56,914 nt of DNA from a bacterium (GTDB lineage Bacteria; Patescibacteriota; Minisyncoccia; 2-02-FULL-40-12; IGHO2-12-FULL-4): contig JAUSIQ010000030.1 of the NCBI GenBank assembly GCA_030647955.1, forward strand, positions 1-56,914. Reading direction: 5' to 3'. The notes beneath the pieces were generated by a model. It saw nothing but the letters and a program-made list of their open reading frames with translations, did no database searches and had not been told where the DNA came from. Made by a program: the position numbers and the translations under genes. This document shows, piece after piece, positions 10,809-43,831 of this stretch (position 1 is the first letter of the stretch; each line of letters begins with the position of its first letter).

Positions 10809-11602
10809 TACTTACTTTTTAAAATAAAAACTTTATCGAGAAGTAAATTGCCGTATTCCGGGTCAATCCGCACTGTTTTAAAAAGTTCGCCGCTTTTGGT
10901 TTGTACATTAGAAACGCGGCCTACCAAAAGCAGACTAGGTAAACCATCTAAACCACTGGTCACTACCGTTTGTCCTTCTTTAATTTCATCCTGATTAGTA
11001 ACCAGCTCTAAAAATAAGCCTTGATTCAGAGCTCCTCTAGTTCTACCTGAGACCGGCGAGTCGGTGATTTTAACATTCATGGCTAAACGAGGATCGGTCG
11101 TAAGATAAATCAAGGCGTGATGTGGATAAACTTCTTTTACAATACCCAGTAAAATATTTCCGCCAAAAATTACGGGCTGTAGTGCGGCCACGCCTTCTTC
11201 CGCGCCCTTATCGATTAAAGCCGTACGCGCCTGACCATCAGTAGTAAAATGGAAAATTCGAGCTATCTCCAAGTCGTAACCCTTCTCTTTCGCCACCCCC
11301 AGCTCTTCTCTCAAAAATTCATTCTCTTTGATTAAATCGGCAAGTTTTAAATTATCTACTCGCAACACTTTATTTTCTTCTACCAAACTCAGGTTTTCTT
11401 TAAGAATGCCCTCGACTTTAAATAGAGAGGTGATCCTCCACTGAATACTTCCCAGGTGCATGTAGCTGCTGGCGAGAGGACGCTCAATCAATCCCAGTAA
11501 CATTCTCTTGAGCCCCTGCCCCACTAAGCGGTTATTCACCACCATAACGACAACCACCACCAGAATGGCGATGATGATATTTTTTATAATTCGATTAGGC
11601 AT
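10808..11602 (-). CDS. mreC: Rod shape-determining protein MreC
   Basis: N-terminal TM, coiled coil (LRVDNLKLADLIKENEFLREEL), then beta-barrel domains. The ATG overlaps the mreB stop. Confidence 0.85.
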   Translation of the reverse strand: MPNRIIKNIIIAILVVVVVMVVNNRLVGQGLKRMLLGLIERPLASSYMHLGSIQWRITSLFKVEGILKENLSLVEENKVLRVDNLKLADLIKENEFLREELGVAKEKGYDLEIARIFHFTTDGQARTALIDKGAEEGVAALQPVIFGGNILLGIVKEVYPHHALIYLTTDPRLAMNVKITDSPVSGRTRGALNQGLFLELVTNQDEIKEGQTVVTSGLDGLPSLLLVGRVSNVQTKSGELFKTVRIDPEYGNLLLDKVFILKSK

Positions 11603-12651
11603 TACCAGTAGGCTTCTTTTGAGGTGACGACTAAGACTTCCTTGAGTTTATCGAGGTGTTCCAGTACAAATCCGCAACCACGAGCGACGGCCGTGAGCGG
11701 ATCATCCACTACTTTAACCGGTAGCTTAATTTCATGGGAGATAAGCTGATCAATACCGCGTAACAGACTTCCACCGCCCGAGACATACACGCTGCGATTT
11801 AAAAGGTCGGCGATTAATTCAGGAGGGGTTTCTTCAATCGTGGATTTAATGTCGGCTAAGATAGTGCGCACCGAGCGCGAGATGGCCTTGCGAATTTCTT
11901 CCGAGGTGATCGTAATTTCCTTAGGCAGTCCGCTTAACATGTCCCGGCCCTTAATCTCACCACTTAACTCCTCTTCCAACGGATAAGCCGATCCTAATCG
12001 AATTTTAACATTTTCAGCGGTGGCTTCTCCAATTAACAAGTTTCTTTCTTCCCGCAAATATCGAATGATATCTTCATTAAACTTATCGCCGGCCAGGCGC
12101 AGAGAGCGCGCCGCGACCACTCCGCCCATCGAGATCACCGCGATTTCAGTCGAGCCTCCGCCAATATCGATAATGACATTGGCCGCGGCTTCTTGCACCG
12201 GTAAACGCGCTCCCACAGCCGCAGCCATCGGTTCTTCAATAAGATAAACTTCGCGGGCTCCGGCGTTATAAGCCGCGTCTTCCACCGCTCGTTTTTCTAC
12301 TTCCGTTACTCCCGAAGGCACACCAACTACCACGCGTGGACGCGGTAGAAAGGAAAGCGTCTCCGAATGCACCCGATCAAAAAAATACTTGAGCATCTGC
12401 TCGGTCACTTCGAAATCAGAGACCACTCCGCTAACTAGAGGCTTAGTGACAACAATATATCCTGGCGTGCGGCCCACCATTTTTTTGGCCTCTTCACCAA
12501 TGGCCAACACCGTTCCAGTTTTGTTATTAATCGCCACAATTGAAGGTTCATTAATAACAATCCCTTTACCGCGCACATAAACTAGAGTATTCGCTGTACC
12601 CAGATCAATCCCGATATCTTTGGAAAAAATGCCGAAAAATTTATTGAACAT
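11602..12651 (-). CDS. mreB: Rod shape-determining protein MreB (actin-like ATPase)
   Basis: IGIDLGTANTLVY phosphate-1 motif, DIGGGSTEIAV, GGGSLLRGID. Confidence 0.95.
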   Translation of the reverse strand: MFNKFFGIFSKDIGIDLGTANTLVYVRGKGIVINEPSIVAINNKTGTVLAIGEEAKKMVGRTPGYIVVTKPLVSGVVSDFEVTEQMLKYFFDRVHSETLSFLPRPRVVVGVPSGVTEVEKRAVEDAAYNAGAREVYLIEEPMAAAVGARLPVQEAAANVIIDIGGGSTEIAVISMGGVVAARSLRLAGDKFNEDIIRYLREERNLLIGEATAENVKIRLGSAYPLEEELSGEIKGRDMLSGLPKEITITSEEIRKAISRSVRTILADIKSTIEETPPELIADLLNRSVYVSGGGSLLRGIDQLISHEIKLPVKVVDDPLTAVARGCGFVLEHLDKLKEVLVVTSKEAYW

Positions 12652-12726
12652 TATGGTTGTAAGATAACAAAAGAATCATGAACAATCAAACCACCACTTA
12701 ATTTATTTTTTACGCGATCACTTAAA

Positions 12727-13245
12727 TTATAAATTATAGTACTGTTTAAATTCTTTTTCTTTAGAACCAATGGAAAATGCTTGAACTAAATCTACATAGG
12801 ACTCAATATCCAGGTACCGCACTAGAAAAGAAATCTCGTTTTCGCAATGGAATGGACAAACAAACACACTTTTTTGAATCATTTTAAAATCCAGAGCTTT
12901 CAGCTTATTGCGCAAAACCTGTCTGGCATTTTTAAATTGTTCTGGAATATCGAAAATTATAATTCTCCACTGGTTATCCCACTTTCTGCTTCTAATTTTA
13001 AGTTGTCTAAACTTTAGATCTAAAAACCATCGCTGGCCCTTACTGGTAAGAGCAAATCCTTTGGGATGATCTCGAATGATTTTTCGGTATTTCAGATTAT
13101 AGAAATTTTGACGAATCCTTTTAGGATCCATTCCGCCACTCCTAATTATTTTATCTTCCCAGGATTCCCTGATGACAAAGCCGGCGGCAATCACCGGAAA
13201 CTCCTCCAAAATTTCCAATAAAGTTGAAATAAATTTACTACGCAT
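12727..13245 (-). CDS. PaaX-family-like regulator (winged-helix region plus Cas2/VapD-like ferredoxin-fold C-domain)
   Basis: WDNQWRIIIFDIPEQFKNARQVLRNKLKALDFKMIQKSVFVCP matches the W..W..v.ydIPe..r..R..lr..L...GF..l..svwv.P pattern of PaaX C-domains. Assigned from motif memory only. Confidence 0.5.
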   Translation of the reverse strand: MRSKFISTLLEILEEFPVIAAGFVIRESWEDKIIRSGGMDPKRIRQNFYNLKYRKIIRDHPKGFALTSKGQRWFLDLKFRQLKIRSRKWDNQWRIIIFDIPEQFKNARQVLRNKLKALDFKMIQKSVFVCPFHCENEISFLVRYLDIESYVDLVQAFSIGSKEKEFKQYYNL

Positions 13246-13248
13246 ATG

Positions 13249-13288
13249 ATACTTTATAATTTACGTGGTCGCTTAAATTATAAAGTAT
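13249..13288. promoter_or_regulatory. Perfect 15-bp inverted repeat (ATACTTTATAATTTA-N10-TAAATTATAAAGTAT); candidate operator/promoter of the PaaX-like gene
   Basis: Arms at 13249-13263 and 13274-13288. It begins 4 nt upstream of the ATG at 13245, and each arm contains TATAAT. Confidence 0.55.
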
Positions 13289-13310
13289 GTGGTGGAATGT
13301 GCAATATTGC

Positions 13311-13338
13311 GACAACAAAAAACTCCCAAGATGGGAGT
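13311..13338 (-). terminator. Intrinsic terminator ending the minus-strand RNA-B candidate
   Basis: On the minus strand: CUCCCA-ucu-UGGGAG followed by UUUUUUGUUGU. It is preceded by a second 9-bp hairpin (13351-13373). Confidence 0.7.
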
Positions 13339-13770
13339 CTAGAAAGAAATGAACCCCGCTGAGCGCGGGGTTCGGAGAACGAAGAAAGGAACATTACAGA
13401 GCGGCGCGGGACTGGCCTCCGAACTACTGGTGGAACTCCTGTTACGGCCGCTTTGGCCGTCCGTTCGGTTTCCACGGACCAGTCCCGCGAAATCAATTCA
13501 CGTTTTCACATGCGCTGATTTCGAAAGACTAAGGGGTCGGCCCGACAGTTAGCAGTCCTGTCAAAACCGACCCACACACAGACGAATTAACGGAGGAACG
13601 GTTGGGAGTGCCGCATCACTCCCTGATTGCTGGTGGGCACCCAGGTATGCGGCCCTGAGCCCCCAACTACCCATTTGGAACGTCGGGATATCGCAGTTCC
13701 AGTAGTTTCCGCTTTAGCTTCACTACCTTCCCTGCGCATTTTGTTCTACTGCACCCGCGGCTTTCTAAAC
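13311..13770 (-). ncRNA. Unassigned large structured RNA candidate 'RNA-B' (about 450 nt)
   Basis: GC-rich relative to its flanks, with only junk ORFs. More than 8 helices of 5-13 bp, including two crossing long-range helices. It has a canonical terminator at its 3' end. No RNase P, tmRNA or SRP signature sequences are seen. Confidence 0.45.
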
Positions 13771-13813
13771 ATAGAGAAATATCAGAATTCCAGAAATCAA
13801 TTAATGTTATTAG

Positions 13814-13822
13814 TGTTAGAAT
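13814..13822 (+). promoter_or_regulatory. Extended -10 box TGTTAGAAT for a plus-strand small RNA
   Basis: Same TGnTAnnAT style as the gene promoters in this window. A TTAATG -35-like hexamer lies upstream. Confidence 0.4.
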
Positions 13823-13828
13823 CTATAC

Positions 13829-14027
13829 TTACCGTCTAAAAAGCTATGGGCGAAGTAGTACTTCGTATTTTTTAATTCACCTATTCAGCAGCCGCAAAAA
13901 ATTGAAGGTACAGTTTTTTGCTTTTGCGGCTATTGAATAGGCCGGGGTGGGCCTAGCTGTCTCGTTGGTCTTTTCTTAGGAGACCCACCCCGGTGGAGCG
14001 GTTTAACGCCGCCGCTCCGATTTTTTT
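13829..14027 (+). ncRNA. Candidate about 200-nt plus-strand sRNA (three consecutive long hairpins)
   Basis: Promoter at 13814-13822. There is an 18-bp hairpin at 13880-13941 and a 10-bp GC hairpin at 13942-13993. The terminator is GGAGCGG..CCGCUCC plus U7 (13995-14027). Confidence 0.4.
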
Positions 14028-14329
14028 CCGCAGCGCAGGAGGTTTTTCTCCTACGCTGCACTCAACGCTCTGGCATACTCACATCCCTACAGAGAAGTGG
14101 TCGCCGCATGACGGTGCAACGAACCACCAGTGCACTTCATCTCACGGATGACGCCGACGCCGGTCGAGGAGTATTCAAAGGTGCAGGTGCGTGTGAAGCA
14201 CGGTCATGCATACCTCCTTTCACGTTGTGGGGGGGGCTGGCGCTATCGTAGTGGCCTGCCCGCCGGTTAAAAGTACAGTTTTTGGGAGGCCTCAGGGGCC
14301 CTTGATGCGGCGCCCTGTTCCAACCTCGC
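13838..14329 (-). ncRNA. Candidate minus-strand transcript 'RNA-A', antisense to the plus-strand sRNA
   Basis: Driven by TTGACA-N18(TGa)-TAAGAT at 14336-14365. GC-rich and hairpin-dense. The 3' end is uncertain: a weak hairpin plus U5 near 13838, or read-through into RNA-B. Confidence 0.3.
13995..14027 (+). terminator. Intrinsic terminator (GGAGCGG-N10-CCGCTCC-GA-T7)
   Basis: 7-bp GC-rich stem followed by a 7-nt T-run on the plus strand only. Confidence 0.65.
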
Positions 14330-14335
14330 TTTATC

Positions 14336-14365
14336 ATCTTATCACATTTGACCCTATAATGTCAA
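14336..14365 (-). promoter_or_regulatory. Sigma70-like promoter TTGACA-N18-TAAGAT with TGn extension
   Basis: The -35 hexamer is at 14365..14360 and the -10 at 14341..14336. There is no CDS downstream for 1.1 kb. A plus-strand TATAAT (14355-14360) overlaps it divergently. Confidence 0.5.
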
Positions 14366-14394
14366 GCACAGCGATGAAAATGGCCAAAAAACCC

Positions 14395-14464
14395 TTATTT
14401 TATCGAGCGAGGAGCAAAATGGCAAATTCTGATTTTACATTTTGTCCGAGTGAAGCTAAAAGAT
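14395..14464 (+). repeat. SD-ATG hairpin module, copy A
   Basis: TTATTTTAtcgAGCGAGGAGCAAAATGG-N13-TTACATTTTGTCCGA-gt-GAAGCTAAAAGAT. It recurs in inverted orientation at 43702-43803. Confidence 0.75.
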
Positions 14465-14482
14465 CTGAACACTTTGCTGCTT

Positions 14483-14536
14483 GGGAGCAAAACGGTTCCG
14501 CCATGGCGGAACCGTTGCCTCGCAGGAACTGCGAGG
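14483..14536 (-). terminator. Tandem hairpins downstream of proS
   Basis: On the minus strand: CCUCGCAG-uuc-CUGCGAGG, then GGUUCCG-ccaugg-CGGAACC followed by GUUUUG. Confidence 0.55.
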
Positions 14537-14541
14537 AGTGT

Positions 14542-15774
14542 TCATTTTTCAAGGGTTTTTCCGATATCCTTAACGGGGACCAACTCCATGCCAGGCTTCC
14601 CACGCCGCTTAACTTCTACGCTCTTTTCTTTGAGGGTTTTAGAGCTCACGATCACCCGAATAGGGAGGCCAATGAGATCAGCATCAGCGAACTTTTCGCC
14701 TGCTCCTTTATCGTCACGGTCATCATAGAGTACTTCCACGCCGTGATCCCAAAGTCTTTGATAAATTTTAGCTGCTTCTTTAGCCGCTCCATCTAACGCA
14801 ATGAGATAAACTTTGAAGGGCGCCACACTTTCCGGCCAAAGCAAACCGCTTTTGTCATGAAAAACTTCCGCCAACGTTCCCATCACTCGGGAGGGACCAA
14901 TTCCGTATGATCCCATCACAATGGGCTTACTCTCCCCCTTCTCATCTACAAAATTCAAATTAAAGGCTTTAGAGAAACGCGTTCCGAGTCTAAATATATT
15001 ACCCACCTCGATGGATTTGCCGACATTAATCGTTCCGTCGCACTTTGGACACTTGCCGCCTTGGGGCAAGTTGGTAATCTCTTTATTCTGACTGTAGCGG
15101 CATTTTTCACAGTAGAAAATAGTATCCTCCCCTGCTTCAGACAACACTTGAAATTCGTGCGTATATTCTTTAGTGAAAGCCCCACCGGAAGCTTCGGTAA
15201 CATAGGCATCTAATCCCAGACGCTGAAATACTTTTAAATAGGAATTGAGAACGTCCTGATAAAAACGTTGCAGATCTGCTTCGTCACGGTGAAAACTATA
15301 CAAATCTTTCATTAAAAATTCTCGTCCACGTAAAATTCCTGACTTCGCTCGGGCTTCATTTCTAAACTTGGACTGAATTTGATAAGCACTGAAAGGTAAA
15401 TCCTTATACGACTGCACGTAACGCTTGGCGATTTCGGTAATAACCTCTTCGTGGGTCCAGCCTAAACCAAACTCGTGTCCGGTCTCATCTTTGAGTTTAT
15501 ACATCACATCGACGTCCCAGCGCTCCGAAGCTTCCCAATAACGCTTATTCACCAAAGTGGGCATCAACAGTTCGGTCGCTCCCAAGGCATTCATCTCTTC
15601 TCGAATGATCGCGTTGATCTTATTGAGAGTACGCCAGCCTAAAGGCAGATAGGTATAAATTCCAGAATTATTTTTGTAAACAAAACCAGCTTGCTCAAGA
15701 AGCTGGGCGTTTACGCTAGTCTCGTCTTTCGGAGTCTCCTTTTCAGTTTTCGTGAAAAGCCTGGAAAGCTTCAT
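14542..15774 (-). CDS. proS: Prolyl-tRNA synthetase, bacterial-type core lacking the INS editing domain (small CxxC..CxxC insert instead)
   Basis: Class II motifs (REFLMKDLYSFH, HEFQVL..GED, GSYGIGPSR) and a C-terminal anticodon-binding domain. It is only 410 aa, with CEKCRYSQNK..CPKCDG where INS normally sits. Confidence 0.88.
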   Translation of the reverse strand: MKLSRLFTKTEKETPKDETSVNAQLLEQAGFVYKNNSGIYTYLPLGWRTLNKINAIIREEMNALGATELLMPTLVNKRYWEASERWDVDVMYKLKDETGHEFGLGWTHEEVITEIAKRYVQSYKDLPFSAYQIQSKFRNEARAKSGILRGREFLMKDLYSFHRDEADLQRFYQDVLNSYLKVFQRLGLDAYVTEASGGAFTKEYTHEFQVLSEAGEDTIFYCEKCRYSQNKEITNLPQGGKCPKCDGTINVGKSIEVGNIFRLGTRFSKAFNLNFVDEKGESKPIVMGSYGIGPSRVMGTLAEVFHDKSGLLWPESVAPFKVYLIALDGAAKEAAKIYQRLWDHGVEVLYDDRDDKGAGEKFADADLIGLPIRVIVSSKTLKEKSVEVKRRGKPGMELVPVKDIGKTLEK

Positions 15775-15782
15775 AATTTAAG

Positions 15783-15791
15783 ATCATAACA
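15783..15791 (-). promoter_or_regulatory. Extended -10 box (TGTTATGAT) 8 nt upstream of the proS ATG
   Basis: Reverse complement of atcataaca. No SD follows. It lies directly after the terminator of the upstream small gene. Confidence 0.45.
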
Positions 15792-15804
15792 GATTTACCC
15801 CCAA

Positions 15805-15833
15805 TAAAAAAGACCCTAGGGGGGATCTTTTTT
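15805..15833 (-). terminator. Intrinsic terminator after the 73-aa ORF
   Basis: Bulged 6-bp hairpin (AGACCC..GGGaTCT) flanked by an A-run and a T-run. Confidence 0.45.
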
Positions 15834-15837
15834 AAAT

Positions 15838-16059
15838 CTATTGGGAAGCTTCTATTTTCTTGGCTAGTGCGTCCGCAATCTGACGGTCCTGCACTTCTTT
15901 CTCTTTAGCTTGAATTTGCTCCCGACTTAATCCTTCTGCTTCCATCTTGGCAATTTCTTCTTGAGAAAAATGAAAGTTAGGGGTTTCACCTGGAGCTAAT
16001 TCTATCGGCCTTTCAGATTTTTTTGGTTCTTTCTTAAAAAACCTCATCCAATTTTCCAT
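15838..16059 (-). CDS. Small charged hypothetical protein (73 aa)
   Basis: ORF with its own terminator. Lys/Glu-rich and helical in character. No motif recognised. Confidence 0.4.
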   Translation of the reverse strand: MENWMRFFKKEPKKSERPIELAPGETPNFHFSQEEIAKMEAEGLSREQIQAKEKEVQDRQIADALAKKIEASQ

Positions 16060-16113
16060 AATATTTTTTCTAAATTTATTTAGGTCATTCGACCTGAATA
16101 TAATTATAACTAA

Positions 16114-17196
16114 TTAAAGAAATTTTAGAATATCCTTGGTAGTCACATAGATCATGAGCAAAATCAAAAGCGAGAAACCGATACTATTGGCCAAAGCCTC
16201 GGCTTTTTTGGGCATGGGTGAACCTTTGATTTTCTCAATAATAAGGAAAAGTAACCTTCCTCCGTCCAAAGCCGGAAAGGGCATAATATTAAGAACCGCC
16301 AAGTTAATAGAAAGTAAAGCCATTAACTGAAGAAGATAGATAAAACCAATCCTTGCCGCCTGGCCCGTAAATTTCGCAATACCGATGGGACCGGAAAGCT
16401 CTGCTCCAGCTGAACCGGTCGTAAAGGCATTTTTAATCACCTGTCCATAACCGATGAACGTATTGGCCGTTAAGATAACGGTTTGCTTCGCTCCTTGCCA
16501 AATAGATTCATACCAAGAATATTTGACCACTCCAGTTAAAGCCATCGAAATACCCACCGCTCCCTCTCCGGGTGGAGGATCGGTGCGCGGGACAATCTCT
16601 TTTTCAATAACTTCACTTCCCCTCTTAATTTTAAAAACGATGGGCTTACCTTTGTTCTGACCAATAACATTCTGTACCTCCTTTACACTTGTGATATTAA
16701 TTTCTTTGCCGTCCACTCGAAAGCCAACGACCTCATCCAGCATTTCTAATTCTGCCTGTGCGGCCGGGCTATCAGAAACCACCTGGATAATCTGCACGCG
16801 CAAATCTTGGACATGACCATCACTTGGTTGATCCGCAAAACCCACTCGCAAGCCCCACATGTTACCGATACTTAACAAAACGAAAGCGAGCAAGACATTC
16901 ATCACCACTCCAGCCACAATGACCTTCGCTCTAGCCGCCGTACTCTTGGAAGAAAAACTGCGATTACTATCTTTCTCTCCCCCATCCTCTCCAAAGATTT
17001 TTACAAAGCCCCCAAAAGGAATAAGGTTAATGGAATAAATCGTCTCTCCTCTTTTAATTCCAAACAATCGTGGAGGAAAACCGAAACCAAATTCTTCCAC
17101 TTTCATTCCCGCTCTTTTAGCCATGACAAAGTGGCCCAACTCGTGCACTAACACTAAAACTCCTAAGATGATGATAAAGATTAAAGCCGTAAACAT
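16114..17196 (-). CDS. rseP: RIP metalloprotease RseP (site-2 protease, M50 family, PDZ domain)
   Basis: HELGHF zinc motif in TM1, a central PDZ-like region and the C-terminal LNIMPFPALDGG motif. Confidence 0.9.
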   Translation of the reverse strand: MFTALIFIIILGVLVLVHELGHFVMAKRAGMKVEEFGFGFPPRLFGIKRGETIYSINLIPFGGFVKIFGEDGGEKDSNRSFSSKSTAARAKVIVAGVVMNVLLAFVLLSIGNMWGLRVGFADQPSDGHVQDLRVQIIQVVSDSPAAQAELEMLDEVVGFRVDGKEINITSVKEVQNVIGQNKGKPIVFKIKRGSEVIEKEIVPRTDPPPGEGAVGISMALTGVVKYSWYESIWQGAKQTVILTANTFIGYGQVIKNAFTTGSAGAELSGPIGIAKFTGQAARIGFIYLLQLMALLSINLAVLNIMPFPALDGGRLLFLIIEKIKGSPMPKKAEALANSIGFSLLILLMIYVTTKDILKFL

Positions 17197-32680: not shown

Positions 32681-32735
32681 AGTTAAATTTTATCACCTTG
32701 AACATGCAAAGCAAGTTGGTATATCTTCGCCAACG

Positions 32736-32804
32736 AAAAAGCCCCGCCCGAGAAAGCGGCCGGATCCGTGACGATATCACGGGCGGAGCTCTCTCGGACG
32801 GGGC
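32736..32804 (-). terminator. Compound GC-rich hairpin terminator
   Basis: 12-bp stem (32741-52 / 32793-804, one mismatch) enclosing the palindrome CCGTGACGATATCACGG. A U-run follows on the minus strand. Confidence 0.5.
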
Positions 32805-32815
32805 GGACTAGAACT

Positions 32816-33139
32816 TCACTTGCGCCAGGTGTTTCTGGAAGGATCATCGGACCAGACGATCTGGTCTTCTGATTCCACCCAGTGACCACCGGCGATCATG
32901 GGAAAGTGCTGATCGTCCTTTAGCCGCGGCTGTTCGATCTTGCCCGCGGCGTAGAGATCCCGGAAGATCTTCTCCGCTTCCGGAAACCTTCTCCAATAGG
33001 ACTCGTTGTACGCAGTAACGAGACGGTCAATCTGGTCAGGGACGGCAACAGTGCCGGCGACGATCTTGTCGACCTTAGACAGGTCGACTCTGCCCTCCGC
33101 TATCTCACGAATACAGAACGACACTGAAAGTCCGATCAT
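32816..33139 (-). CDS. Hypothetical protein in a GC-rich patch
   Basis: ATG 33139 (MIGLSVSFCIREI...) has AGGAG 6 nt upstream. The tracked start at 33175 adds 12 codons. Composition is visibly GC-richer than the neighbours. Confidence 0.5.
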   Translation of the reverse strand: MIGLSVSFCIREIAEGRVDLSKVDKIVAGTVAVPDQIDRLVTAYNESYWRRFPEAEKIFRDLYAAGKIEQPRLKDDQHFPMIAGGHWVESEDQIVWSDDPSRNTWRK

Positions 33140-42703: not shown

Positions 42704-42716
42704 ACTCGGTTTTTTT
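42695..42716 (+). terminator. Intrinsic terminator (CCGAG-ctaaa-CTCGG-T7)
   Basis: The stop codon lies in the loop, and a 7-nt T-run follows. Confidence 0.7.
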
Positions 42717-42731
42717 ATCCACAGGCGAATC

Positions 42732-42759
42732 TTGATTTATAAATCAGCCTTGTTAATAT
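42732..42759 (+). promoter_or_regulatory. Sigma70-like promoter TTGATT-N16-TAATAT
   Basis: It sits between two terminators with no ORF downstream, so it would drive the sRNA candidate. Confidence 0.5.
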
Positions 42760-42765
42760 ATTCAA

Positions 42766-42975
42766 GCGGGTTTGGAAGAAAGTAAAGACGATTCCCTTGG
42801 CCGGCACAATGGGAAGAGCAAGGGGTGATGAGGCCGGTGGCCTCTAAGTACACCTGATCCGGTGACTCGCGGCCCAAGCTATGCGAAGCCCGAACACCGT
42901 TGCTAAACCAAACTCGTCCAGTTCTTATTTATCCTTTCTCCTTTCCTCGCCCTGGATTTCCAGGGCTTTTTTTTA
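42766..42975 (+). ncRNA. Unassigned about 210-nt sRNA candidate with its own promoter and terminator
   Basis: Closing helix GGGUUUGG/CCAAACUC, internal hairpins (CCCUUG/CAAGGG; GAGGCC/GGCCUC), a CU-rich tail, and the terminator GCCCUGG-auuu-CCAGGGC-U9. Confidence 0.45.
42949..42975 (+). terminator. Intrinsic terminator of the sRNA candidate
   Basis: 7-bp GC stem plus a 9-nt T-run. It works only on the plus strand. Confidence 0.7.
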
Positions 42976-43029
42976 TTTTTCATCCATTATATCTCAACTC
43001 GCCTCATCGCTTTCTTCGGAAAGAAGAAT

Positions 43030-43376
43030 CTCCGCTCCCCCACCCCTTTCTTGATCCTCCTTCGGTTTCAAATCCTCTGTCCATTTTGTTGTAAAGCCAG
43101 ATGAAAAGGACGAGCCTGGTCGAGCCCTCCCCTCATCCTTTGTCATCTGGCCTTTACTTCCAAAATGGCCAGGGATTATATCACCCTCAGTCGGATTAGC
43201 GGCGAAAGGGATGGGGTCGCTTTCACTAGCGACGATAGGAGATGAGGGTCACCTAAAATTTCTGGAATCAAATATTGATTCGAATGCAGCTGATGAGCGC
43301 AGTCGAGGATCAGTGGAGAGGAGTAGGTGGTGGAGCGATAAGGTTTTTTGCTGGAGAAAGGGGTGGGGCCGCGGAG
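43030..43376 (+). ncRNA. Unassigned about 350-nt structured RNA candidate closed by a 20-bp helix (strand tentative)
   Basis: P1 is 43030-43051 / 43355-43376 and P2 is 43052-43059 / 43305-43312 (8 bp perfect). There is a 15-bp hairpin at 43096-43151, further hairpins at 43182-43249 and 43265-43281, and C(UUCG)G tetraloops on the plus strand. Confidence 0.4.
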
Positions 43377-43393
43377 GTCTAACTGAACGTGAC

Positions 43394-43422
43394 TTGCATA
43401 AATACAGATAATTTGTTATTAT
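43394..43422 (+). promoter_or_regulatory. rpsT promoter TTGCAT-N17(TGt)-TATTAT, 10 nt from the ATG
   Basis: Good -35, spacer and extended -10. No SD precedes ATG 43433. Confidence 0.55.
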
Positions 43423-43432
43423 CATAGCCGAT

Positions 43433-43702
43433 ATGCCAATTACTCAATCCGCCGAAAAGGCGTTGCGACAATCTAAAAAGAGACACGTCGAGAACCTCCG
43501 TTTTAAGAGGAATTTTAAAGCGGCCATCAAAGAATTTAGAGACGAGCTCGGTGCCAAGAATTTCGAAAAAGCCAAGAGCCTATTACCGAAAGTTTACCAA
43601 GCCGTTGATAAAGCCACCAAGAAGAACGTCCTCAAAAAGAACACTGCCAGCCGATATAAATCTCGTCTCACTAAATCTCTCGCCGTCGCCAGTGCAAAAT
43701 AA
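43433..43702 (+). CDS. rpsT: 30S ribosomal protein S20
   Basis: 89 aa, basic, with a typical S20 N-terminus (MPITQSAEKALRQSKKR). Confidence 0.92.
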   Translation: MPITQSAEKALRQSKKRHVENLRFKRNFKAAIKEFRDELGAKNFEKAKSLLPKVYQAVDKATKKNVLKKNTASRYKSRLTKSLAVASAK

Positions 43703-43803
43703 TCTTTTAGCTTCGCTGTGCCACCGCTAAAGCTTTAGCGACACGCGATCGGACAAAATGTAATATAAGAATACCCCATTTTGCTCCTCGCTATGTAAAA
43801 TAA
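43702..43803 (-). repeat. SD-ATG hairpin module, copy B (with a 32-nt net palindromic insertion)
   Basis: The reverse complement reads TTATTTTAcatAGCGAGGAGCAAAATGG-N13-TTACATTTTGTCCGA-[34 nt]-GAAGCTAAAAGAT. It starts at the rpsT stop codon. Confidence 0.75.
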
Positions 43804-43831
43804 AAAACACCCCGCTCAATGGGGTGTTTTT
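43802..43831. terminator. Bidirectional terminator between the rpsT region and ftsW
   Basis: A5-CACCCC-gctcaat-GGGGTG-T6. Confidence 0.7.

Follow-up and report, generated by a model that had tools for sequence, protein, structure and literature searches.

A candidate gene for a large structured RNA at the proS-mreB junction of a narrow Patescibacteria clade

Why would a member of the Patescibacteria, whose genomes are tiny and strongly streamlined, keep 1,296 bases with no credible open reading frame (ORF) between proS (15774..14542) and a 172-aa gene (13245..12727)? The question is raised by contig JAUSIQ010000030.1, of which we analysed a stretch of 56,914 nt (the window) whose genes lie nearly all on the minus strand. 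The cumulative GC skew falls steadily over 11000-17000, the part that was profiled. The original prediction, made from the letters of the window, had singled out 13311-13770 within this gap as a structured RNA candidate of about 450 nt. Taken together, the analyses reported here suggest with good confidence that the locus is a genuine gene whose structured RNA belongs to a new family, and we further hold it probable, at a more guarded level, that the gap as a whole is one independently transcribed minus-strand gene for a large structured non-coding RNA (ncRNA) of ~1,015 nt, running from ~14329 to ~13315. Because the promoter-to-terminator unit spans 14329..13315, the segment singled out before would be the 3' 45% of the RNA, and the length of about 450 nt has to be given up, since the promoter lies outside that segment and helices H1 and H2 (13749-13941) lie mostly so. 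What we describe is a well-supported candidate that rests on the sequences of five loci and not the discovery of a mechanism.

Composition, folding and the lack of coding signal all bear on the question of what the gap holds. As had been pointed out, the flagged segment is GC-rich against its surroundings (54.8% vs 43.8% for the whole window), although the genome, which had been called AT-rich, is only moderately so at that window value. On the minus strand 13311-13770 folds with a minimum free energy (MFE) of -187.9 kcal/mol, better than all of 100 shuffles (z = -4.6), which upholds the reading of its dense folding as that of a structured RNA candidate; the plus strand of the same segment reaches z = -3.6. 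For 1,000 nt of the longer unit (14314-13315) the values are -406.3 kcal/mol with z = -8.2 on the minus strand and -376.1 kcal/mol with z = -3.9 on the plus strand, and for a 513-nt version of the RNA from a relative (L087, see below) z is -5.6 when the proS strand is folded and -4.1 for the opposite strand. The ORFs of the gap are no longer than 72 aa, save one that runs antisense into proS, and many of them are short and Arg/Pro-rich; none has a credible Pfam match. A decayed protein gene had also been considered, and here a six-frame comparison with relatives gave weak matches in all six frames and in the H1-H2 stretch only, that is, no frame-specific similarity and no coding signal. Moreover, blastn in its distant mode found no match to the gap in phage and plasmid collections, and a search of the gap for a repeat or CRISPR-like array turned up only two-copy short matches and hairpins.

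The ends of the proposed unit are given by its transcription signals (Table 1). The putative promoter P1 is the sole site on either strand of the window (2 x 56.9 kb) that joins a perfect -35 to an extended -10 element, and promoters equivalent to it lie at the same relative position in the relatives L087 (11/12 consensus positions), L089, L090 (9/12) and L092 (12/12). At the other end, a terminator scan recovered the canonical minus-strand terminator with its U6 tract that had been described before (13340..13320), together with a second one at 13373..13351. The unit of L090 is also closed by a terminator in the scan and that of L087 by a terminator found on reading its sequence, and in the relatives the terminators stand on the same strand as the RNA (by the scan, or by reading for L087 and L092). 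As consensus matches, promoter and terminator thus recur in the same order and orientation in 5/5 loci. The stop codon of proS, at 14542, directly precedes a pair of hairpins (14491..14536) that are probably the proS terminator, and for this reason the RNA would not simply be the 3' untranslated region of proS. A second promoter within the AU-rich segment of H2, which would split the unit into two RNAs, was considered and discarded: by eye, no pair of -35 and -10 elements is acceptably spaced on the proS strand of any of four sequences, and H2 pairs across this segment with covariation.

How widely is this arrangement found? Among 80 GTDB relatives, which are metagenome-assembled genomes of Parcubacteria/Paceibacterota with ProS at most 61% identical, mreB starts 0-160 nt past proS in ~55-60, and none of the 80 loci gave a homologue of the gap by blastn, nhmmer, a covariance model or profile hidden Markov models (HMMs). 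Because proS and mreB are directly adjacent in most of these relatives and none has similarity to the gap, we regard the RNA and, separately, the 172-aa gene as additions to a proS-mreB junction that is ancestral. The homologues and the covariation by which the candidate was to be judged came instead from closer relatives, in short assemblies of sequencing runs, where four loci carry the RNA and four helices show compensatory changes. In L087 (ProS 83% identical) 794 nt of non-coding sequence are followed by mreB; in L089 (81%) ~1.9 kb of non-coding sequence reach the contig end; in L090 (76%) 1.3 kb of non-coding sequence are followed by a gene of the 23S_rRNA_IVP family and then mreB; and in L092 (75%) ~0.9 kb of non-coding sequence reach the contig end. 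With nhmmer, 13955..13743 aligns with L087, L089 and L090 (E = 6e-14 to 4e-23), and a model of the D module (Table 1) has matches of 54-73 bits in the window, L087, L089 and L092, one of them at 63 bits (E = 3e-14). L087 has a minimal version of ~510 nt, since V1 is only ~45 nt there as against 335 nt in the window, and in L092 H2 is shortened and H1 missing. The locus of L089 holds two D units, the second of them with a complete D module (73 bits), from which it follows that the RNA gene can be tandem-duplicated. We observe that the second units of L089 (3930-4410) and L092 (3330-3420) follow the first and open with a conserved hairpin, CGCAAAAUGUUUCU..AUAUUUUGCGGGG, which overlaps a promoter-like TTGCGG..TAAAAC/TAAATT. 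From these loci the RNA family appears to be previously undescribed, and seen only in a narrow Patescibacteria (Paceibacterota-like) clade and always between proS and mreB. In two further assemblies, L088 (ends 7311; ProS 83%) and L102 (ends 3881; 69%), the contigs break no more than ~50 nt past the proS stop, which would fit strain-level heterogeneity or repeats at the junction.

The RNA is modular, in that a conserved core is split by fast-evolving GC-rich expansion segments. The core comprises H0, H1, H2 with its AU-rich apical segment, the D hairpin and the long-range helix D3:D3', and the expansion segments are V1, V2, the interior between D3 and D3' and the 3' tail, which range from ~20 to more than 300 nt among close relatives. 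Hairpins of other sequence stand at the position of H0 in L089 and L090 (GGGGUUGG/CCAACCCC; GGGCGGGGG/CCCCGCCC), as seen by eye and left out of the counts given below. In the mid-stem of H1 one non-canonical position and one U.G pair are invariant, and the loop of H1, AAAAACUGUACCUUCAAUUUUUU, is A-rich, then UGUAC, then U-rich; a loop motif of H1, AAAAACUGUAC, has a second copy in V1 at 14283..14273. H2, whose 3' arm forms the 5' edge of the flagged segment, encloses a 63-nt sequence-conserved AU-rich segment (13833..13771; GUAUAGAUUCU.ACACU.AUAAC.UUAAUUGAUUU). The place of V2 is taken by ~20 nt in L087 and by unrelated sequence in L089 and L090, and directly 5' of D5 stands a GC-rich hairpin of variable sequence in 4/6 units. 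The D module follows the consensus UUAGUCUYUCG-GAAAUCAG-[variable loop]-UUGAUUUC-GCGGGACU and includes the 7-bp helix 13489-95/13516-22. D3' is AGUCCCGCG, with the variable tail and the terminators downstream of it.

Table 1. Features of the proS-mreB junction in the window, in the 5' to 3' order of the candidate RNA and followed by neighbouring elements
Feature	Position	Strand	Description
P1 promoter	14336..14365	-	TTGACA, 18 nt, TG-n-TAAGAT; inferred start near 14329
V1, 5' variable segment	13994..14329	-	335 nt, 58.9% GC; genome-specific; ~45 nt in L087
H0	13942..13993	-	13-bp GC-rich hairpin immediately 5' of H1
H1	13880..13941	-	20-bp hairpin, 13941..13922 with 13899..13880
H2	13749..13855	-	22-bp helix, CUUCGCCCAUAGCUUUUUAGAC (13855..13834) with GUUUAGAAAGCCGCGGGUGCAG (13770..13749)
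V2, second variable segment	13535..13748	-	214 nt, 55.6% GC
D module	13477..13534	-	D5 UUAGUCUUUCG, hairpin GAAAUCAG/UUGAUUUC, D3 CGCGGGACUGG
D3:D3' long-range helix	13405..13489	-	13489..13479 with 13415..13405; encloses variable 63-nt interior
Tandem intrinsic terminators	13314..13373	-	terminator scan; end the RNA 3'
First terminator	13373..13351	-	GAACCCCGC-loop-GCGGGGUUC
Second terminator	13340..13320	-	AGACUCCCA-loop-UGGGAGUUU, then U6/U-tract to ~13314
Post-proS hairpins	14491..14536	-	14536..14518 and perfect 13+13 palindrome 14516..14491, then UUUUGCU
Repeat element, ~80 nt	14380..14462	-	UCUUUUAGCUUCACU..GGACAAAAUG..CAUUUUGCUCCUCGCU; upstream of P1
Winged helix-turn-helix (wHTH) and Cas2-like (PaaX_M) gene, 172 aa	13245..12727	-	PaaX_M E = 4.9e-23, CRISPR_Cas2 E = 3.4e-7
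PaaX_M cassette, outside the RNA	12691..13295	-	flanked by copies of a ~45-nt palindromic element

Further support for an RNA comes from the way these helices change among the relatives. In a MAFFT alignment of four sequences, 91.7% of the cells of H1 and H2 together are paired, with seven pairs changed on both sides and a score that none of 500 shuffles reaches, and when the partner is slid by 1-3 columns pairing falls to 40-51%. For H1 taken separately 92.5% of cells are paired and 6 of the 20 pairs have changed on both sides among the four sequences, and for H2 90.9% are paired, with one pair changed on both sides and five on one side. In the long-range helix D3:D3', compared over six units, 87.9% of cells are paired, both-side changes are seen in 6/11 pairs (for example CGCGGGAC/GUCCCGCG in the window vs CGUGAGAC/GUCUCACG in L090), and the covariation score is reached by 0/500 shuffles. 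The D hairpin including D5:D3 is 93.1% paired with four both-side changes, and here 12/500 shuffles score as high; its compensatory changes come mostly from L092 (A-U to G-C, G-C to C-G). Over the four helices the both-side changes add up to 17 pairs (4-6 sequences, two of the alignments hand-trimmed). Additional support comes through the strand on which the imperfect pairs make sense. Over the three alignments the non-Watson-Crick cells consist of 43 G.U pairs and 29 mismatches when read on the proS strand, vs 17 and 55 on the opposite strand, and the invariant G.U pairs of H2 would be C.A on the opposite strand. Because of this wobble bias and these invariant G.U pairs, the data point to an RNA of the same sense as proS and not to inverted repeats at the DNA level.

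We also found that D3 (13489..13479; CGCGGGACU) has two conserved and mutually exclusive partners, D5 (13531..13523) and D3' (13415..13405). Pairing with D5 extends the local D hairpin to 17 bp, and when each pairing is enforced in folding, the D5:D3 and D3:D3' states are no more than 5 kcal/mol apart in 4/6 units; without constraint, the MFE structure of the window RNA has D3:D3' and that of L087 has D5:D3. In the window neither of the two alternative helices shares bases with the terminators, and in L092 D3' overlaps, by eye, the 3' half of a hairpin that is followed by a U-run. The original prediction had listed eleven helices in 13311-13770. All of these are there, ten with equal arms as perfect Watson-Crick duplexes and the eleventh as 13 bp with a 3-nt bulge, and 7/10 of the equal-arm helices are in the MFE structure of the 1000-nt minus-strand RNA. 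Among the relatives their fates differ: 13405-15/13479-89 covaries and 13489-95/13516-22 is conserved, the two hairpins at the 3' end are the terminators, but those within 13534-13573, 13601-13667 and 13445-13478 are genome-specific, their segments being replaced by unrelated sequence or nearly absent elsewhere. The helices of 13534-73 and 13601-67 lie in V2, as does one arm of the 13-bp helix. This last helix (13422-37/13695-707), which crosses the 11-bp one, can be drawn as described, but both of its arms are lineage-specific, it has no comparative support and it is absent from the MFE structure. A pseudoknot or a mutually exclusive switch of the 13-bp and 11-bp helices had been proposed, and what is conserved is instead the alternative of D5:D3 vs D3:D3'.

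Several observations weigh against a single large RNA gene and have to be set beside this evidence. V1 and V2 fold with modest structure when taken alone (z = -2.1 and z = -2.45), and V1, V2, the interior and the tail, which are without homologue, make up over half of the RNA. The RNA is absent after proS in L091 (ProS 75%) and in L093-L096 (70%), no further member turned up when ~950 kb of other Patescibacteria loci were searched with a covariance model and HMMs, and scans of JGI metagenomes and of viral contigs (two each) with two conserved-block patterns found no true homologue, the patterns giving zero and five matches of which the five were chance hits to unrelated sequence. The sampled organisms are uncultured and closely related and give five loci (six D units), and the compensatory changes therefore represent few independent events; the shuffle control ignores relatedness and so the phylogenetic signal. 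The alignments of the D module and of D3:D3' were hand-trimmed, with loops and interiors swapped for short fillers, and the tested pairings are favoured over the slid controls because they were first spotted in the same sequences. Selection on the DNA itself can also preserve inverted repeats of such length, the signals for promoter and terminators are consensus matches, and a short-word blastn search for targets of the conserved loops in the window gave nothing beyond chance save a 12-nt match to the repeat at the 3' side of proS.

These points lend some weight to the idea that there is no functional RNA here at all, and that the proS-mreB junction is a hotspot for palindromic or mobile DNA, such as MITE-like elements, IVS-like hairpins (resembling the intervening sequences of rRNA) and small gene cassettes, whose helices are DNA inverted repeats kept by recombination or protein binding. 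The junction is hypervariable in length and content among genomes with ProS 75-83% identical, the contigs of two relatives break right after proS, a palindrome-flanked cassette, a two-copy repeat element and the inserts in L089/L090 that resemble intervening sequences (IVS) all lie there, the RNA is missing from L091 and all more distant relatives, and the GC content is unlike that of the host genome. We nevertheless rate this explanation as rather improbable, given that a promoter and terminators bracket the unit in the same orientation at every locus, that invariant G.U pairs and a wobble:mismatch ratio of 43:29 vs 17:55 are not what DNA repeats would give, and that D3:D3' covaries across 60-150 nt of unrelated sequence; since neither the rest of the window nor ~950 kb of related loci yielded the core, there is also no sign of mobility. 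Improbable as well, in our judgement, is that the RNA serves as a very long cis-acting leader or attenuator of the cell-shape operon mreB-mreC-mreD-pbp2 downstream of it, in which D5:D3 vs D3:D3' would set the read-through from P1. The terminators of the window are separate strong hairpins, 30-90 nt past D3', with stems that have no predicted alternative pairing; unrelated genes stand between the RNA and mreB (the PaaX-like cassette in the window and the 23S_rRNA_IVP gene in L090); L087 has ~115 nt with promoter-like sequence between terminator and mreB; a length of 0.5 to >1.6 kb far exceeds known leaders; second units with a promoter-like site of their own (L089, L092) better suit a gene family; and no riboswitch or T-box model matches. 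What speaks for a leader is that the RNA is always directly upstream of mreB and on the same strand, that D3 has two conserved partners whose states lie so close in energy in 4/6 units, and that in L092 the overlap of D3' with a hairpin and U-run is the classic terminator/antiterminator layout.

Could the RNA instead be a divergent or expanded form of one already known, such as RNase P, tmRNA, 6S, SRP, OLE, GOLLD, ROOL, HEARO or a group I/II intron? Housekeeping neighbours, together with terminators and a strong promoter, would suit such an RNA, and the string AGAAAGCCGCGGG (13766..13754) loosely resembles the 5' strand of P4 in RNase P, GGAAAGUCCGGG. This string is the 3' arm of the local helix H2, and there AGAAAGCC pairs locally and with covariation, not in the long-range manner of P4. 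The search against Rfam that had been proposed was carried out and gave no credible family: at the gathering score the whole window has no match (no SSU, LSU or 5S rRNA) and ARAGORN finds no tRNA gene in it, at E<=10 the intergenic region has only chance matches of miRNA or snoRNA type, and nothing credible came from the loci L087-L090 at E<=0.1 or from the 571-nt L087 version at E<=10 with lax filters (Rfam 15). In the intergenic region and the L087 RNA at E<=10, and in L087-L090 at E<=0.1, there is no match to RNase P RNA (RNaseP_bact_a / RNaseP_bact_b; P4 strands GGAAAGUCC ... ACAGAA..GGCUUA) or to OLE, GOLLD, ROOL, raiA or HEARO, and in the intergenic region and L087 RNA at E<=10 none to SRP RNA or 6S RNA. 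No tmRNA was found by ARAGORN in the window or by Rfam, and the 3' end of the RNA is formed by intrinsic terminators; the earlier view that the candidate is not assignable to RNase P, SRP or tmRNA is supported. Group I and group II introns have no Rfam match and the element is intergenic with its own promoter, and riboswitch, T-box and leader models give no Rfam match to the RNA (intergenic region and L087 RNA). Considering also that absence from this locus in a relative with 75% identical ProS and in distant ones would be odd for an essential RNA, although its gene could sit elsewhere, we regard a disguised known RNA as very unlikely. The last explanation, a decayed protein gene or functionless foreign GC-rich DNA, would account for the GC content above the flanks and for the many short Arg/Pro-rich ORFs, and it is hard to square with the lack of frame-specific protein similarity, of Pfam matches and of phage or plasmid similarity and with the strong structure z-scores, the covarying helices and the conserved promoter and terminators; among all the explanations we give it the least credence.

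If the locus is a new RNA family, how might the RNA work? A free-standing and probably abundant RNA is favoured over a leader because its promoter and terminators are strong and the alternative helices keep clear of the latter, and we tentatively picture, at rather less than even confidence, a processed scaffold that acts in trans. In such a picture the RNA would serve as a stable and abundant scaffold or binding platform, with the conserved single-stranded AU-rich loop of H1 and the apical segment of H2 as the best candidates for surfaces that contact protein or nucleic acid. D3 probably pairs first with D5, locally and during transcription, and would later be captured by D3' over the longer range. 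Because of its near-perfect duplexes of 17-22 bp and the IVS-like inserts in the D loop, the RNA is likely a substrate of RNase III, and cleavage by this enzyme may process it into smaller pieces. Going further, one may speculate, and we think this unlikely on balance, that it belongs to a new large modular RNA class of ultra-small Patescibacteria in which a bistable D5/D3/D3' core and AU-rich loops are carried on an insertion-tolerant scaffold. Such a class would gain expansion segments and IVS-like hairpins rapidly, much as rRNA does, and would form an abundant RNase III-processed ribonucleoprotein or a self-assembling RNA with a novel cellular role and possible tandem copies (L089, L092). 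Bacterial ncRNAs of more than 500 nt with a conserved intricate structure are rare (OLE, GOLLD, ROOL and few others), and each is biochemically unusual. That streamlined genomes keep a promoter-driven non-coding gene of 0.5-1.6 kb between housekeeping genes suggests a real cost-benefit trade. If expressed, the RNA would offer a new family for structural work, a natural case in which a conserved core puts up with expansion segments that grow and vanish very fast, and possibly elements like those of rRNA IVS that invade a non-ribosomal RNA.

The surroundings of the RNA have features of their own. The 172-aa protein passes the Pfam cut-off for CRISPR_Cas2 as well, and the palindromic element copies on either side of its gene (13249-13295 and 12691-12737) are 83% alike, so that 12691-13295 has the look of a small cassette that was inserted here, or of a gene between two operator sites. 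A functional link between this gene and the RNA was considered and dropped: the RNA-bearing relatives lack the gene (L087 has proS, RNA and mreB only), and its homologues (41-43% identical) lie in unrelated contexts with no large non-coding neighbour. Between proS and the promoter of the RNA, L090 alone has a GC-rich 138-aa ORF (1700-2116) with no Pfam family, and because this too was inserted there the junction seems to collect small genes. In L089 (3583-3687) and L090 (2837-2949) the D loop is a ~100-nt AU-rich hairpin of GTTATAAG.TATAGG-like repeats, and the same type of repeat precedes the 23S_rRNA_IVP-family gene next to the RNA in L090 (3375-3412). The repeat element upstream of P1 has a second copy downstream of rpsT (43700-43830 on the plus strand; 55 nt at 85% identity), so that proS and rpsT are each followed by an element of ~80-130 nt, UCUUUUAGCUUC..GGACAAAAUG..CAUUUUGCUCCUCGCU; in the second units of L089 and L092 a related hairpin, CGCAAAAUGU..AUAUUUUGCG, lies before the promoter-like site. 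The first 12 nt of the repeat (14460..14449, UUUAGCUUCACU) are perfectly complementary to 13724..13713 in the RNA (blastn E = 0.03) and the rpsT copy would pair there using one G.U, a complementarity that may be chance.

Elsewhere in the window, the gap between proS and the 172-aa gene had been called the only long non-coding stretch, which overlooks ~730 ORF-poor nt at 42704-43432, between a 111-aa ORF and rpsT, with a terminator-like hairpin and U-run near 42950-42980. As a related RNA this stretch has little to show, having no D module and no Rfam match, with z = -0.96 for 42745-42985. On the minus strand at 32816-33139 we noted by eye an ORF of ~107 codons in an island of 57% GC (32701-33100), with promoter-like sequence upstream and a terminator downstream, which may be a horizontally acquired small gene.

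How does the candidate RNA compare with systems that are better understood? With riboswitch and attenuator platforms it shares one strand (D3) that has two conserved partners of similar predicted energies, and it differs from them in having no aptamer or T-box match, in window helices that lie off the terminators and in the position of the element in the middle of a 1-kb RNA with strong terminators at its end. Like the decoy RNAs 6S and CsrB, it is predicted to be an independent transcription unit with repeated hairpins that show conserved single-stranded motifs, the AAAAACUGUAC motif occurring twice in hairpin loops of the window; unlike CsrB it has no regular array of GGA loops, unlike 6S it has no single central bubble and is five times longer, and it matches neither model. 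Its near-perfect long duplexes (H1 20 bp, H2 22 bp, D5:D3 17 bp) are like the stems that RNase III processes. IVS are sequences that invade hairpin loops of rRNA, and by analogy, on a reading of the sequences and general knowledge, the replacement of the D-hairpin loop by a long AU-rich hairpin in L089/L090 resembles them, although the host RNA is not an rRNA and matches no SSU, LSU or 5S model.

The closest likeness may be to the orphan large bacterial RNAs OLE, GOLLD and ROOL (PMC12286853, PMC5737381), for which structures have been reported (PMC12286853). Those three have been shown to form homo-oligomers. The RNA described here differs in its much narrower known distribution (five loci at one syntenic site), in a length that varies much more among close relatives (~0.5 to >1.6 kb) and in its conserved bistable D5/D3/D3' element and IVS-like insertions, and it lacks the association with tRNA or prophage of GOLLD and ROOL and that with a partner protein of OLE. 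GOLLD has a variable 5' half. In common with all three, the RNA proposed here is longer than 500 nt, is built of many helices, has its own promoter and terminator and is restricted to one lineage, and like them it is detectable as a GC-rich intergenic region in a genome of lower GC and joins a conserved core to variable parts.

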